In this document: positions 3,968-8,315 of the stretch, one piece after another | Numbering within the stretch: the stretch's first letter is position 1 | Layout of the letters: every line of letters begins with the position of its first letter | DNA from: Candidatus Woykebacteria bacterium | GTDB lineage: Bacteria; Patescibacteriota; Microgenomatia; Woykebacterales; RBG-16-39-9b | Reading direction: 5' to 3' | NCBI GenBank assembly: GCA_040876265.1 | Contig: JBBDPN010000002.1 | Coordinates: 236,330-300,329 of the forward strand | DNA length: 64,000 bases | Made by a program: the position numbers and the translations under genes | Notes under the pieces: model-generated | Databases searched by the model: none | The model's input: only the letters and a program-made list of their open reading frames with translations | Told to the model about the DNA's origin: nothing

Positions 3968-4040
3968 AACTCACGGCCGCCTAACCTCAGAGTAAATTCT
4001 ATTTAATTCTTTCTGATTTAATTTTTTCGTATTTTCTATA

Positions 4041-4070
4041 TTGACACGACGCATTAAATTGCTCTAGAGT
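4041..4070 (+). promoter_or_regulatory. Candidate sigma70 promoter (TTGACA, 18 nt spacer, TAGAGT) upstream of the TasA-like gene
   Basis: TTGACA at 4041-4046 and TAGAGT at 4065-4070. Located in the AT-rich intergenic region after rpoC. Confidence 0.3.
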
Positions 4071-4168
4071 GTAAGTGAATTCTTCTGCCCGCGTTTAGTT
4101 TTTCTGCCCAAGTAAAAATTAAATTTATATTATGAGCCTGCTGTCTGCTCCGACCTAGAGAAATATTT

Positions 4169-4201
4169 GCTGTACCCAAACAGGGTGCAGCTTTTTGTTT
4201 T
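4169..4201 (+). terminator. Rho-independent terminator-like hairpin (9 bp stem, GCTGTACCC/GGGTGCAGC) followed by TTTTTGTTTTG
   Basis: GC-rich stem plus T-run, about 200 nt downstream of the rpoC stop and about 25 nt upstream of the SD for the next gene. May act as rpoC terminator or attenuator. Confidence 0.45.
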
Positions 4202-4226
4202 GTAAATCTGAGAGGAGGTGAAAAAA

Positions 4227-5063
4227 ATGCTCGAAAGAGTCGATAAAAAGAAAATTATAACCAGTCTCATAACCCTTGTCGCTGCTGGGGCGCTTCTCGT
4301 TGGTGCTACCATCGCCTTCTTCACTGATCAAGAAACTAGCCAAGACAACGTCTTTGCAGCGGGATCGCTGGATCTAAAAGTGGACTATGATTGTTACTAC
4401 AATAAAATAGCCGATGACGACCCAAATTGTCCTTGGGATGATTCTTCGTGGGAAGAAACAGACTTGGGACCACAACACAAATTCTTCAACTTCAACGATA
4501 TTAAACCAGGCGACTTTGGTGAAGGCACTATTAGCCTTCATGTGTACAACAATGATGCCTGGGGAAGATTGGTGATTAGTGATGTTCAAGATCTAGAAAA
4601 TACTTACCTTCAGGCTGAACTAGATGCAGGGGATGCTGGGGTACCTGATGGAGAACTTCGCGAAAATCTCGGTTTCAGAATTTGGTTAGATCAGGGACAA
4701 ACTGTAGGATTTCAAGGCACAGAAGATGAAGGTGAAGGTGACAACATCTGGCAGCAGGGAGATGAACCAGTATTAGTAACCCAAGGTACGGTTGACCTTG
4801 GTGGTGAAACGCACAATATATGGCAGGGTCTTTCAGCTGTTTATGTAGCGGAAAGTTGTACAACAGTCGATGGAAACGCTGGAGGTGATTGTCCTGGTAT
4901 AGCACAAGATGGACGTCTAGTAGGTAGCGTTACTTATTACTTTGGTATTGATTGGGAACTTCCAGACACTGTCGGTAACGAAGTACAGACAGATAGTTTA
5001 AGTGCAGATATGACATTTGAAGTTGTACAGCACAGAAACAACCCTGGCAAAACAGGGTTCTAA
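4227..5063 (+). CDS. TasA/camelysin-like (peptidase M73-like) secreted protein with SipW-cognate signal peptide
   Basis: Strong SD AGAGGAGGTG 7 nt before ATG 4227. N-terminal h-region then GATIAFFTDQETSQDNVFAAGSLDLKV, the A-F-F-[ST]-D-x-E-[TS] SipW-cognate motif, followed by N-x-F-x-AG-x-LDL. Internal NDIKPGD matches the TasA NLKPGD motif. Confidence 0.75.
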   Translation: MLERVDKKKIITSLITLVAAGALLVGATIAFFTDQETSQDNVFAAGSLDLKVDYDCYYNKIADDDPNCPWDDSSWEETDLGPQHKFFNFNDIKPGDFGEGTISLHVYNNDAWGRLVISDVQDLENTYLQAELDAGDAGVPDGELRENLGFRIWLDQGQTVGFQGTEDEGEGDNIWQQGDEPVLVTQGTVDLGGETHNIWQGLSAVYVAESCTTVDGNAGGDCPGIAQDGRLVGSVTYYFGIDWELPDTVGNEVQTDSLSADMTFEVVQHRNNPGKTGF

Positions 5064-5065
5064 AG

Positions 5066-5127
5066 TCCGAGGTTTGGAAACAGTAGGCCCCTTGGTGGAC
5101 CTAAATTTGCCCTAAGGGGCCTCGGAC
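5066..5127 (+). promoter_or_regulatory. GC-rich compound stem-loop between TasA-like gene and sipW
   Basis: GTCCGAGG (5066-5073) pairs with CCTCGGAC (5120-5127). AGGCCCCTT (5085-5093) pairs with AAGGGGCCT (5114-5122). No T-run follows. Candidate intra-operon attenuator or stability element. Confidence 0.35.
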
Positions 5128-5148: not shown

Positions 5149-6327
5149 GTGGGTAAACTTCGAAGAGAGGTGGTAGTGATAGTAATAAACATATTGAAAT
5201 ACTTTGCCGTTGTAGCATTTGTACTGCTGGCAATAGTAGCCCTTGCTGCGAACGTGAAATTACCACAAGGCTACAATCTATATGTAGTCCAAAGCGGTAG
5301 TATGGAACCCCAGATCGGGGTGGGTTCGGTAGTGCTTACCAAACCAACTGCTGATTTTGTCGCCCCCATGCAAACACCGAGATTTATTCGGGGTGATGTC
5401 ATCACCTTTTCAGCGGGCGATTCATTGGTTAGTCACAGAGTGATCGAAACTGTGGAAGAAGAGCGCCAATTTTTCTATAAAACACGCGGCGACGCCAACG
5501 AAGAAGCTGATAAAAATCTTGTTGCAGAAGAAAACGTAGTTGGAAAGGTGTACCTGACTGCTCCTCATGTTGGCCGATTTGTCAGTTTTGCTAAACAACC
5601 TCTTGGTTATTTTCTGATGATTTTTATTCCTTCTGTTTACGTAATTATCTCCGAAGCTTGGGCAATAATTTCCGAATTGCGAAAGGTTCGCAGGAAAATC
5701 CCGGCAACTAGCGCCGCTTTACCAATTGCGTTGGTTTTTGCAGGAAGCCTTTATCTTGTCGGTAGCACAGCTGCTTTTTTCTCTGATACAGAGACAAGCA
5801 CAGGCAACATTTTCCAAGCAGCCGATTCTTTTTGTGAAAAAGGTACACTCTTTATGATTGGAGATCAGGAATCCAGCCAACTTGATAATCCGGTTGATGA
5901 ACTCAACTGGCCTGGTGCATTTGGGATATTTCCCGCCTTCCCAGACCCGTTTGTAGTTGGTACAAATCTTGATAGCGAATTTCCTTACAACTCCAATTTT
6001 AGCAACGGTTACGCTACTGACTTCGATGTAAATTTCGAATTTACCAGCGGTAGCACAGCTGATGCGCGACTTATGTTTTCTTGGGGGCCTGGACGTTCAG
6101 GAACGGAGGAAAAAGAAGTGTTTCTGGATGCGGGAAGTATCTTTACTGTCACAAGGACAGGGGCTTCCGTTGCCGGTTGGTCGGAAGATATGCAAAGATT
6201 TGAGGAAACAGCTGATTTTTCGCTGAGTCCTGGAAGTCACGCCCTAAATTTCCAACATTTAAGCGGTAACGGTACAATTTGGGATTTTGTGAAAGTAGAG
6301 ATACTAGACTGTAATCCACAGGAATAA
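5149..6327 (+). CDS. sipW: SipW-type (archaeal/ER-type, S26B) signal peptidase fused in frame to a secreted domain carrying its own SipW-cognate signal peptide
   Basis: GTG start. N-terminal TM, then VVQSGSMEPQIGVGSVVLTKP...GDVITF...SHRVIE...TRGDANEEAD, which aligns with B. subtilis SipW including the catalytic Ser in SGSMEP, then a C-terminal TM. With no stop codon it continues RKVRRK-IPATSAALPIALVFAGSLYLVGSTAAFFSDTETSTGNIFQAAD plus about 190 aa of unknown domain. Confidence 0.8.
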   Translation: MGKLRREVVVIVINILKYFAVVAFVLLAIVALAANVKLPQGYNLYVVQSGSMEPQIGVGSVVLTKPTADFVAPMQTPRFIRGDVITFSAGDSLVSHRVIETVEEERQFFYKTRGDANEEADKNLVAEENVVGKVYLTAPHVGRFVSFAKQPLGYFLMIFIPSVYVIISEAWAIISELRKVRRKIPATSAALPIALVFAGSLYLVGSTAAFFSDTETSTGNIFQAADSFCEKGTLFMIGDQESSQLDNPVDELNWPGAFGIFPAFPDPFVVGTNLDSEFPYNSNFSNGYATDFDVNFEFTSGSTADARLMFSWGPGRSGTEEKEVFLDAGSIFTVTRTGASVAGWSEDMQRFEETADFSLSPGSHALNFQHLSGNGTIWDFVKVEILDCNPQE

Positions 6328-6331
6328 ATCA

Positions 6332-7375
6332 ATGAAAAAGAAACGAAAGTTGATAAAAATAGCTTCACTTTCCCTGGCGATTGCAGTCGCGGTTTGGGCA
6401 AACGGTGGTTTATCTTTTTCTTTGAACAATACAGCCTATGCAGTTGGTGATCTTTCTATTGACTGGGGAGTACCGAGCGGCGACCCTATCTTTGTGATAA
6501 GTGATTTCAAGCCAGGCGATATGGAAAGTAGACCTGTTTTGGTAACAAACGGTGGGGCTGGTATTCGGCCTGTTGGAGTAAGAGGCGAAAAAACCAGTGA
6601 AATCGGTGAACTTGCGACAGTATTAGACTTTATTATTTCTGAAAATGGAACCGATCTTTACGGTGGTACCAGTGCCACCGGGCCAAAGAGTCTGCAAGAT
6701 TTCTTTGATGAAACAGTTGGTATGAACAGCATCTTTTTGTCGGATCTAGGACCAAGTGATTCAACTGCCTATACTTTTAAGGCTACTTTTGATGAGGCGG
6801 CCGGCAATGAGTTTCAAGAAAACGAGGTTGTTTTTGACATAATCATTGGAATTTCGGTAGAAGTACCGGAAGAATGTGGCGATATTGAATTTGACGGCGA
6901 CCCTATCTTTGGGACGTCCTCAGGCGATAGTATAAATGGAACCAATGGTAACGACTTGATTTTCGGTTTGGAGGGAGGAGATTCTATAAATGGTCGAGGT
7001 GGGGATGATTGCATTGTCGGCGGTGACGAAGGCGATGGGTTGAGAGGAAACAGCGGAAATGATGTTATTTTGGGCGGAGCTGGTGGTGATTCACTCAGGG
7101 GAAACGACGGTAATGATAAGCTTTTTGGCGGTAGTGAGGGTGACAGCCTAAGGGGAGGAAACGGCGAAGATTTACTTGATGGAGGTACTGGTAGCGATAG
7201 CCTGCGGGGTGGAAACGATAATGATGTGCTGTTTGGTAGAGAAGGAGCCGATTCTCTCCGAGGCGGAAATGGAGATGATTATCTGGATGGAGGTCCAGGT
7301 CAAGATGGATTACGTGGAGGTGCCGGTTTCGATACCTGTATAGATGGTGAAAGTGTAAAAGGCTGCGAACCCTAA
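6332..7375 (+). CDS. Secreted protein with TasA-like N-domain and C-terminal RTX-type calcium-binding repeats
   Basis: Sec signal peptide MKKKRKLIKIASLSLAIAVAVWA. ISDFKPGDMESRPVLVTNGG matches the TasA KPGD motif. C-terminal half is tandem GGxGxDxLx nonapeptides (GGAGGDSLRGNDGNDKLFGGSEGDSLRGGNGEDLLDGG...). Confidence 0.8.
   Translation: MKKKRKLIKIASLSLAIAVAVWANGGLSFSLNNTAYAVGDLSIDWGVPSGDPIFVISDFKPGDMESRPVLVTNGGAGIRPVGVRGEKTSEIGELATVLDFIISENGTDLYGGTSATGPKSLQDFFDETVGMNSIFLSDLGPSDSTAYTFKATFDEAAGNEFQENEVVFDIIIGISVEVPEECGDIEFDGDPIFGTSSGDSINGTNGNDLIFGLEGGDSINGRGGDDCIVGGDEGDGLRGNSGNDVILGGAGGDSLRGNDGNDKLFGGSEGDSLRGGNGEDLLDGGTGSDSLRGGNDNDVLFGREGADSLRGGNGDDYLDGGPGQDGLRGGAGFDTCIDGESVKGCEP
6944..7337 (+). 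repeat. Tandem 27/54-nt coding repeats encoding RTX nonapeptide (GGxGxDxLx) units
   Basis: At least 12 consecutive nonapeptide units in the translation. Periodic ggtg(g/a)tga...ctg/ttt DNA pattern. Confidence 0.6.
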
Positions 7376-7384
7376 CACCTGTGG

Positions 7385-7416
7385 TTGACAGGGACGGACC
7401 CTGTCAAACTGTCAAA
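7385..7416 (+). promoter_or_regulatory. Perfect 9-bp inverted repeat TTGACAGGG-N5-CCCTGTCAA followed by tandem CTGTCAAA CTGTCAAA
   Basis: Sits immediately after the RTX gene stop and before the 7455 membrane-protein gene. No T-run, so it looks more like an operator than a terminator. Contains a TTGACA -35-like hexamer. Confidence 0.35.
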
Positions 7417-7454
7417 GGTTGCAATCAAGCCTTTGTTTGTTAATAATATAAATA

Positions 7455-8315
7455 ATGCGGGGTTTGTTAGCAGTACTTGTTTTCCTTTTCTTTGGCCTCA
7501 CCTTTCCCATAGCAGTCTTTACTTACGCTGTTACTACAGTTGTAAACCCTTCCTACGTAAAATCCCAACTTGGGAATTCCGAAATTTATGAAGTAGCCGC
7601 TGATCAGATTCCAAATCTTATTGATAGAGAGGAGGAACACGATGAGAAGCGAGTGAAAGATCCGACCGAAGAGAAGTTTAAAAAAATAATACTTCAGGAA
7701 GTTGACGGAAAATATCTGCAGAGTAAAGTCGAGCCTTTTGTAGACGATACTTTTTCGTGGCTCGCAAGAGAGCGACAAGAGCCACCACAAATTAGTTTTG
7801 CCGATTTAGCGGAAAGAGCTGAAAAATTGGTAAAACAACCACTGCCAACTGATATAGAGAAGACACTCTCCGAGCCCTTTAAACTTGAGCCAGATAATGC
7901 CAACGCAATAAAAGATTGGTACAGATGGTTTACGCTGACACCACTTATCTTTGGTATCATCAGCGTCCTACTTCTAGTGGGGTTGTTTTTATTAGTAAAG
8001 GGATGGAGATCGAGATTGAGAAGAGTAGCGCTAGCTATCTTTCTGCCCACATTTTTTGGGTTTTTGGGGGTTGGTGTGGGTTTGTTCCTGGGAAGGATAC
8101 TCTCTGGTATTGCTAGTGGGTTGGTAGCCGATTCACGCCTGCCCGATTTGCAGGTACCAGTAGAAGAGATAGTTGTGAGTATTTCAGAAGATATAACTAG
8201 AACTTTACTAATTATTTACGCGGTCGCCCTGGTGGTAGCAATTATCCTATTTATTTCCTCGTTTTTTGTAGACAGGGAGTCCAGACTTTCTAAAGAGGCA
8301 GTTGATAAAAAGTAA
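7455..8315 (+). CDS. Hypothetical membrane protein (N-terminal TM, acidic soluble domain, 3 C-terminal TMs)
   Basis: 286 aa ORF with hydrophobic segments. No recognised family. Confidence 0.45.
   Translation: MRGLLAVLVFLFFGLTFPIAVFTYAVTTVVNPSYVKSQLGNSEIYEVAADQIPNLIDREEEHDEKRVKDPTEEKFKKIILQEVDGKYLQSKVEPFVDDTFSWLARERQEPPQISFADLAERAEKLVKQPLPTDIEKTLSEPFKLEPDNANAIKDWYRWFTLTPLIFGIISVLLLVGLFLLVKGWRSRLRRVALAIFLPTFFGFLGVGVGLFLGRILSGIASGLVADSRLPDLQVPVEEIVVSISEDITRTLLIIYAVALVVAIILFISSFFVDRESRLSKEAVDKK

Follow-up and report, generated by a model that had tools for sequence, protein, structure and literature searches.

We analysed a 64,000-nucleotide stretch of a Candidatus Woykebacteria genome (Patescibacteriota; GenBank assembly GCA_040876265.1, contig JBBDPN010000002.1, positions 236,330 to 300,329 of the forward strand), hereafter the window, and found that it encodes a SipW-type signal peptidase fused in frame to a substrate-like domain that carries the cognate type of signal peptide. 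The fusion is a genuine, evolutionarily fixed joining of sipW to a substrate gene that is usually its immediate downstream neighbour. We consider it probable that the product is a polyprotein of peptidase and substrate, cut either in cis or in trans, and it may release a fibre accessory resembling TapA of Bacillus subtilis. The in-frame fusion had been noticed in an earlier note made from the DNA letters alone, and both curated protein models and its recurrence in homologues now bear it out.

A signal peptidase and a substrate-like module in one reading frame

A stop-free frame runs on the + strand from a GTG at 5149 to the stop codon at 6325-6327, both in the list of open reading frames (ORFs) and in the raw sequence, and corresponds to 392 amino acids. 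The bounds first given for the gene, 5149-6327, stand as the limits of this frame; translation probably begins at a second GTG, at 5176, which is favoured because it is preceded by a Shine-Dalgarno (SD) sequence, GAGGTG, and coincides with an independent gene call (P0001) and with the N-termini of homologues. The gene (5176..6327, +) would then encode 383 residues, and residue numbers below follow this form. The motifs originally listed for the protein, SGSMEP, GDVITF, SHRVIE, GDANEEAD, RKVRRK and STAAFFSDTETS, were all recovered from the ORF. A second assembly, the Logan assembly of run SRR27977662 (L085, a contig of 22,978 nt), matches the window without a single difference over 6,206 nt, a stretch that takes in the junction between the two modules.

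The N-terminal module belongs to the signal peptidases of the archaeal and endoplasmic reticulum (ER) type. TIGR02228, the model for archaeal/ER-type signal peptidase I, matches residues 16-168 of the 392-residue form with 89.6 bits against a cutoff of 51.85, and the closest sequence match in the PDB is human SEC11C (7P2Q). The Bacillus SipW equivalog model NF046067 matches with E=1.4e-33 and 116 bits, under its 190-bit cutoff, so the window peptidase is a SipW homologue and not a strict equivalog. The catalytic domain (residues 34-129; 5275..5562, +) contains, by alignment with homologues, the catalytic residues Ser42 (5299-5301), His87 (5434-5436) and Asp106 (5491-5493), a Ser-His-Asp set rather than the Ser-Lys dyad of P-type enzymes. 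Both serines of SGSM (S40 and S42), His87 of SHRV, Asp106 of GDAN and Asp112 are invariant in 29 aligned homologues. The catalytic triad of B. subtilis SipW is S47/H87/D106 (PMC8767453).

The module has the predicted topology of a SipW, with an N-terminal anchor, an extracytoplasmic catalytic domain and a C-terminal transmembrane segment (TM) that ends in the cytoplasm. The N-terminal signal-anchor, TM1, covers residues 2-26 (5179..5253, +; hydropathy 6-24, AlphaFold2 helix 2-26), and the C-terminal helix, TM2, covers residues 142-171 (5599..5688, +; hydropathy 143-161), where the AlphaFold2 confidence score (pLDDT) is about 85-88. In the model of the whole protein, with a mean pLDDT of 79.6, the helix 2-26 is followed by a beta-rich catalytic domain (34-129), by two helices (142-171 and 181-195) linked by a short loop, by a disordered, low-confidence stretch that contains the predicted cleavage site (196-215) and by a folded beta domain (223-379). 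The C-terminal tail of B. subtilis SipW lies on the cytoplasmic side (review PMC8767453), which is the topology that re-export by a following signal peptide requires. The earlier proposal that the chain returns to the cytoplasm and is then exported a second time fits the hydropathy, the modelled TM2/TM3 hairpin and this cytoplasmic C-terminus.

The internal signal peptide and its predicted cleavage

Directly behind TM2, the sequence reads as a signal peptide in an internal position. A basic cytoplasmic loop, RKVRRK (R169-K174; 5680..5697, +), provides the n-region, and the positive patch is conserved in the family; it is followed by an h-region (I175-G196) and a c-region, STAA (S197-A200), together at 5698..5775 (+), a segment supported by TIGR04088, by a family profile hidden Markov model (HMM) and by the AlphaFold2 model. 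TIGR04088, which describes SipW-dependent-type signals, matches residues 193-226 of the fusion protein with 19.8 bits against a cutoff of 19, and the family-specific signal HMM matches the internal signal with E=6.8e-20. The signal occupies residues 175-200 of 383, behind the peptidase and TM2, and not the N-terminal position of the TIGR04088 type; this internal placement is the novel aspect of the arrangement. Substrates of this type are expected to be encoded beside a SipW, and the C-terminal part of the window protein, here called the cargo, is covalently fused to one.

The scissile bond is predicted from the sequence to lie between A200 and F201 (nt 5775/5776; ...VGSTAA/FFSDTETS...), with small residues at -3 and -1 and aromatic ones at +1 and +2 (T-A-A/F-F). 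Among 149 distinct internal signals of the family, P1 is Ala or Ser in 147 (98.7%) and P3 is Thr, Ser, Ala or Gly in 145 (97%), as counted with an anchor that leaves the scored residues unconstrained; P1' is Tyr, Phe or Leu, and P2' is Phe in 81%. A smaller set of 51 internal signals gives the same picture at -3/-1 and at P1'/P2'. The internal signals have a net-positive n-region before the h+c stretch, and a Gly-containing c-region is kept across the fused family. By a crude measure, the uncharged h+c stretch is 26 residues long in the window, against a family median of 18 and 21 in the N-terminal signals of neighbouring substrates. Judging from these sequence features, the internal signal is probably cleaved, and self-processing would be consistent with the near-perfect conservation at -3/-1 and with the intact active site.

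The same data bear on the reading that the third hydrophobic segment is a permanent, uncleaved anchor, and that the tethered cargo docks or anchors TasA-like fibres or recruits substrates. A topology with three TMs is indeed predicted, and in the model for Clostridium perfringens TasA-like monomers join the fibre while still anchored by their signals (PMC11580942). TapA is thought to anchor TasA fibres (PMC9674648), and Candidate Phyla Radiation (CPR, Patescibacteria) bacteria would presumably benefit from a fibre anchor that is independent of sortase. In a permanent anchor, however, unselected -3 and -1 positions should drift, yet P1 and P3 are held at the frequencies given above, and the residues at the internal site are the same as those in the N-terminal signals of neighbouring substrates, which are necessarily cleaved. 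The length of the h+c stretch is signal-like, the helix-breaking, Gly-rich c-region is kept, and an active site lies in the same or an adjacent molecule. We regard a permanent anchor as improbable.

If the signal is cleaved, the attached SipW is the favoured enzyme. Cleavage by a housekeeping LepB/P-type peptidase encoded elsewhere, with the fusion serving only co-expression or co-targeting, would agree with the -3/-1 rule, which every type I signal peptidase follows; a scan of the window, which spans 64 kb of the genome, found no LepB-type motif, and a LepB may be encoded outside it. The window contains one SipW and two SipW-type signals in all. Against LepB stand the aromatic residues at P1'/P2' (FF or YF). 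An aromatic residue, Phe, at P2' is reported to make the TasA site a poor LepB substrate (PMC10269814), so that TasA-type sites call for a dedicated SipW, and this favours the attached SipW-type enzyme over a housekeeping peptidase. The signal also matches the SipW-cognate model TIGR04088, and a cognate peptidase with intact active-site residues is covalently attached to it, so that a housekeeping peptidase is a very unlikely agent of this cut.

The fusion recurs across CPR lineages

About 30 proteins, 330-680 residues long and 23-66% identical, came out of a first homology search, and all have the same layout: a SipW module, a second TM, a basic patch, a third hydrophobic segment, the motif [GT]-x-A-[YF]-F-S-D-T-E-x-S-x-x-N-x-F and then C-terminal domains that differ from protein to protein. 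In their alignment, the linker between TM2 and the h-region ranges from about 0 to more than 80 residues and is always in frame. A fused protein of Candidatus Woykebacteria RBG_13_40_7b (P0013) is annotated in the database only as 'signal peptidase I'.

Two wider searches gave the same result. When one genome for each GTDB species was scanned with a sequence pattern, 566 relatives emerged, of which the best 80 loci, all from Patescibacteria/CPR even where a record bears another name, were read from their sequence; 77 had a callable SipW ORF, and 20 of these are fused, the remainder being stand-alone proteins of 161-294 residues. Among the fused loci are members of Curtiss-, Levy-, Woese-, Chisholm-, Shapiro-, Kaiser-, Nomura-, Sacchari- and Parcubacteria. 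In a profile search of 1.84 billion cluster representatives (50% identity), almost all of the best 150 matches have one stretch spanning peptidase, signal and cargo, and 132 of the 139 new representatives among them carry the SipW domain and a downstream SipW-type signal in one chain. At least 164 fused proteins were collected in total. SipW homologues are therefore not always separate proteins of 180-190 residues, the pattern that the earlier note had named as refuting its proposal: roughly one in four of the closest CPR loci, and upwards of 130 representatives, carry the fusion.

In a neighbour-joining tree of 100 catalytic domains (rough and without bootstrap), the 41 fused ones fall into several deep, all-fused clades, and parsimony requires at least eight gains or losses of the fusion. 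This suggests that the fusion arose or reverted repeatedly and was kept over long divergence while the cargo was swapped. We found no prior description of a signal peptidase fused to its own substrate in the literature searched, the coverage of which was incomplete, so that an earlier report is possible.

Split relatives indicate where the cargo came from. Comparison of orthologous loci, proposed together with the original observation, uncovered both fused and split forms. Of 58 loci with a stand-alone sipW, 33 have, on the same strand and no more than 400 nt downstream (often 2-135 nt), the start of a gene with a SipW-type signal; not one of the 21 loci counted as fused has such a downstream gene. 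Upstream, nearly all loci, fused and stand-alone alike, also have a gene with this type of signal. The most informative split ortholog, L086 (ENA ERZ23486238 scaffold_82523), has a TasA/camelysin-like gene, sipW, the cargo gene and a gene for an RTX-repeat protein in the same order as in the window. In contrast to the window, its peptidase and cargo genes are separate, with coupled translation, and the cargo signal is N-terminal. The SipW of L086 has 188 residues and is 48% identical to window residues 33-174, and its cargo, P0049, is the closest stand-alone relative of the window cargo (58-60% identical). The sipW stop overlaps the cargo start by 4 nt (ATGA), and an SD sequence, AAGGAG, lies 9 nt before the cargo start; neither a stop nor an SD is present at the equivalent position of the window.

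These loci also settle how a lost stop codon, offered earlier as an alternative to the fusion, should be understood. As evolutionary history the idea holds, since the split form exists in L086 and in the 33 stand-alone loci, whereas as an artefact of assembly it does not. Split loci with a 4-nt overlap do mean that a single indel could fuse the two genes. However, the junction is identical in the second assembly, independent samples yield fused orthologs with 46-66% identity, and the fused proteins, at least 164 from many CPR lineages, conserve their catalytic and cleavage-site residues. With the fusion this widespread and the fused clades this deep, we rejected an assembly artefact, and an assembly or sequencing error or a recent, pseudogene-like loss of a stop is scarcely credible as the origin of the fusion.

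Probably one chain rather than two

A second way in which the frame could mislead is internal initiation. An in-frame TTG had been placed at about 5686 as a possible start; the codon exists, at 5677-5679 (Leu168), immediately before RKVRRK, and a start there would produce a textbook signal peptide. The cargo could then be made as a protein of its own, with the ORF being a mere stop-less overlap, or both forms could be produced, and L086 shows that the modules can work as separate genes. As a start, the TTG fares poorly. It lacks an SD, whereas the gene's own start has GAGGTG and the cargo gene of L086 has AAGGAG, and it is not conserved, since many homologues have Ile in its place (EIRK). The junctions of 23 distinct fused loci share no conserved in-frame start with an SD, and at one of them, L019, neither ATG nor GTG nor TTG occurs in frame. 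Linkers of more than 80 residues are nonetheless held in frame. We infer that SipW and cargo are translated as a single chain, and consider two separately initiated proteins quite unlikely.

A donor-strand-like segment on a cargo predicted to resemble carbohydrate-binding modules

Upstream of the fusion gene lies a TasA-family gene (4227..5063, +; alternative start 4218), whose 278-residue product has an N-terminal SipW-type signal and an N-terminal match to PF12389; TIGR04088 scores 30.7 bits on this ORF (4218/4227-5063). A single-sequence phmmer search of the protein against the PDB gave no match, and only a 15-sequence profile, built from it and 14 syntenic counterparts, reached B. subtilis TasA (5OF1, 8AUR), with E~2e-8 over nearly the whole body. 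This profile match indicates that the upstream gene encodes a true TasA-family subunit, presumed to be the major SipW substrate or fibre subunit.

The segment that follows the predicted cut in the fusion protein, FFSDTETSTGNIFQAA (F201-A216; 5776..5823, +), corresponds to the N-terminal donor strand of TasA. The predicted mature start of the cargo, FFSDTETSTGNIFQAAD, and that of the upstream TasA-like protein, FFTDQETSQDNVFAAGS, share 9 of 17 residues, after which the cargo diverges. The strand is conserved in the fused family whatever the type of cargo; N211 (5806-5808), the Asn of S-x-G-N-x-F, and F213 are each present in at least 90% of members. In TasA, the donor strand consists of the first 11 mature residues (28-38) and completes the next subunit. 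TapA, whose body is unrelated, has a comparable strand at its N-terminus and is believed to nucleate or anchor the fibres (PMC9674648). By analogy with TapA, the cargo may be another unrelated body headed by a mimic of the donor strand of the TasA-type subunit encoded beside it.

The body of the cargo (C220-E383; 5833..6324, +) measures about 165 residues, fewer than the roughly 190 first estimated, and has a Cys near both ends. Described initially as a domain of unknown fold, it is now predicted to form a beta-jelly-roll like that of carbohydrate-binding modules (CBMs). Sequence homology does not relate it to the jelly-roll body of TasA/camelysin (PF12389). Among 14 relatives, the cargo module has 25 invariant positions; a homologue search with the cargo alone, limited by its word index, returned four proteins, the other relatives coming from the first search. 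The module stands alone behind its own SipW-type signal (P0016, P0049), is fused to a SipW of another clade (P0010), and occurs at the C-terminus of TasA-like and other secreted proteins. Of the fused proteins collected, just two join the CBM-like module to SipW: the window protein and P0010, which is truncated. The dominant cargo is instead a lamin-tail domain (LTD), found in 17 of 29 proteins by Pfam and 114 of 164 by motif, and a GFYSLGF-type domain is another swapped cargo in fused clades. The window cargo is thus a rare variant within the fused family.

A related observation concerns P0133, a giant surface protein of 3,176 residues related to the common cargo domain, in which 12 separate stretches, apparently LTD-type repeats, match the cargo part of the profile.

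A proposed route from precursor to fibre accessory

Taken together, these results suggest the following route for the peptidase-substrate polyprotein. The whole gene would be translated as one polypeptide, with TM1 targeting and anchoring the chain. The catalytic domain would lie on the outer face of the membrane, and TM2 would return the chain to the cytoplasm, as hydropathy, the AlphaFold2 model and the topology of B. subtilis SipW indicate. The basic loop and the third hydrophobic segment would then serve as an internal signal of the SipW-cognate type and send the C-terminal part out again, and the SipW module of the same molecule (in cis) or of a neighbouring one (in trans) would cut after A200. 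Left behind would be a peptidase with three TMs, retaining the signal peptide as TM3, and the released product would be a protein of about 20 kDa with a TasA-type N-terminal donor strand on a CBM-like beta-jelly-roll. The semi-tryptic N-terminal peptide of the cleaved cargo would be FFSDTETSTGNIFQAADSFCEK. More speculatively, the cargo, released or transiently tethered, may act like TapA, its strand FFSDTETSTGNIF plugging into a TasA-family subunit, and it may add a glycan-binding or adhesive module to the fibre, or prime or anchor it. Being made 1:1 with the peptidase, the cargo would be sub-stoichiometric to the major subunit.

Several points weigh against parts of this proposal. The TTG at 5677 leaves some internal initiation possible, and the internal signal clears the TIGR04088 cutoff only narrowly. 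The scissile bond is uncertain by one residue, because alignment to TasA (TWA/AFND) needs a one-residue shift. The linker between TM2 and the signal varies up to about 140 residues in the family, which means that there is no fixed cis geometry and that nothing in the tether length favours cleavage in cis over cleavage in trans. For the window protein and its relatives alike, cleavage is a prediction from sequence. The cargo fold comes from a shallow, 14-sequence alignment with a mean pLDDT of 76.6, and the donor-strand or TapA-like role of the cargo is speculative, resting on sequence analogy. The facts of sequence are solid, and the accessory role in fibres is a hypothesis drawn from analogy.

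The cut may also be coupled to assembly. In C. perfringens, SipW is proposed to cut only after a membrane-tethered monomer has joined the fibre, and the donor-strand Asn35 of BsaA makes an intermolecular isopeptide bond (PMC11580942). The SipW::cargo protein might similarly work as a peptidase-coupled assembly platform, on which the tethered donor strand primes the first TasA subunit, the invariant Asn may form a BsaA-like isopeptide bond, and the attached SipW hands over or releases the fibre. We think this rather unlikely; if true, a single polypeptide would combine initiator, anchor and processing enzyme independently of sortase, and the swappable cargo (LTD, CBM-like and others) would decide the binding target of the fibre end, which for episymbiotic CPR cells could be the host surface.

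Relation to known systems

The window system resembles the tapA-sipW-tasA operon of B. subtilis and the sipW-bsaA-bsaB-bsaC cluster of C. perfringens, in which a Ser-His-Asp peptidase of the ER/archaeal type is likewise dedicated to neighbouring TasA-family substrates, and an aromatic-rich strand, the donor strand of the fibre, follows the cleavage site. TapA itself combines a donor-strand mimic with a body that is not of the TasA type, as proposed for the window cargo. In contrast to both systems, the window peptidase and one substrate form a single polypeptide, and the signal follows a TM hairpin. The window cargo differs further from TapA in being a CBM-like jelly-roll without TapA homology, and the host belongs to the CPR/Patescibacteria. 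Within the CPR, the SipW::LTD fusions (e.g. P0013) have the SipW module, TM2, the basic loop, the internal cognate signal and the FSDTE strand in common with the window protein, which departs from the bulk of that family (LTD in 114 of 164) in its CBM-like cargo.

Polyproteins of the flavivirus type offer a precedent for the internal signal, as the host ER signal peptidase Sec11 cuts them after internal signals that follow TM segments. In those precursors the peptidase is a separate host enzyme, whereas the window protein brings its own. The same clan has members known to cut themselves: LexA, UmuD and lambda cI (S24, clan SF like S26) and, in vitro, LepB and SpsB. The LexA-type proteins, however, are soluble Ser-Lys dyad enzymes that make a regulatory or inactivating cut, and no secreted cargo is freed at a signal-peptide site. 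SipA/LepA of Streptococcus pyogenes, reportedly catalytically inactive and chaperone-like, is an S26-family protein with a role in surface-fibre assembly and, unlike the window SipW, is not fused to its client. This signal peptidase-like protein is described as needed for sortase-dependent pilus polymerisation (PMC4049620).

A signal peptidase covalently joined to its cognate substrate is an unusual natural enzyme-substrate 'Rosetta stone', and the gene fusion confirms the SipWs of CPR bacteria and the FSDTE-type signal proteins as functional partners. The fused family is a large one and fills more than 150 clusters at 50% identity. It offers a compact, one-gene system for studying the recognition and cutting of an internal signal, in cis or in trans, by an ER-type peptidase homologous to eukaryotic Sec11, and it suggests that TasA-like fibres whose adhesive end-modules can be swapped are widespread on the surface of the CPR/Patescibacteria.

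Neighbouring genes and variant architectures

The fusion gene is followed by a gene for a secreted protein with RTX/HemolysinCabind repeats (6332..7375, +; PF00353, E=1.2e-20), which has an ordinary AYA/V signal, not one of the FSDTE type. As a conserved third member of the cassette, an RTX protein follows SipW, fused or split, in other loci as well (L001 7152-8201, L003 3656-4735 and L086 3990-5036). Its N-terminal part of about 180 residues gave no family match, and a resemblance to TasA-like proteins suspected by eye ('F-x-x-x-D-x-KPGD') was rejected, BLASTP against the upstream TasA-like protein giving E=0.53. Two terminator-like hairpins with T-runs, identified by consensus match only, bracket the three-gene unit, one between rpoC and the cassette (4169..4201, +) and the other after the RTX gene (7413..7445, +). 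In both the window and L001 the cassette lies directly downstream of rpoB-rpoC.

The TasA-like gene and the fusion gene are 112 nt apart, and the interval contains a GC-rich nested inverted repeat at 5066-5127 (+), GTCCGAGG...GGCCCCTTGG...CCTAAGGGGCCTCGGAC. As an attenuator it was rejected: its fold has z=-1.22, 28 of 200 shuffled sequences fold as well, and it has no T-run. The repeat could modulate read-through and hence the ratio of subunit to peptidase. Beyond the cassette, a gene at 7455-8315 (+) encodes a predicted membrane protein of 286 residues with only a sub-threshold match to DUF4064; it is called at the same position in the second assembly, and not in L001 or L086.

The SipW module itself appears in several other architectures. 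P0034, P0039 and P0040 have long, basic, Pro/Arg-rich cytoplasmic C-terminal tails that replace, or precede, the signal and cargo, and that recall the regulatory C-terminal tail reported for B. subtilis SipW. P0047 (399 residues) apparently has two SipW-like catalytic modules in tandem, and P0048 (370 residues) carries a SipW-like module at the C-terminus of a protein with about nine TMs. P0042 and P0043 are almost identical to P0029 but lack TM2 and/or the h-region, so that the catalytic domain runs almost straight into FFSDTETS; they may be deletion variants or assembly chimeras. Finally, a Shapirobacteria locus, L049, encodes two stand-alone SipW paralogs within 2.5 kb (1504-1989 and 3983-4552).

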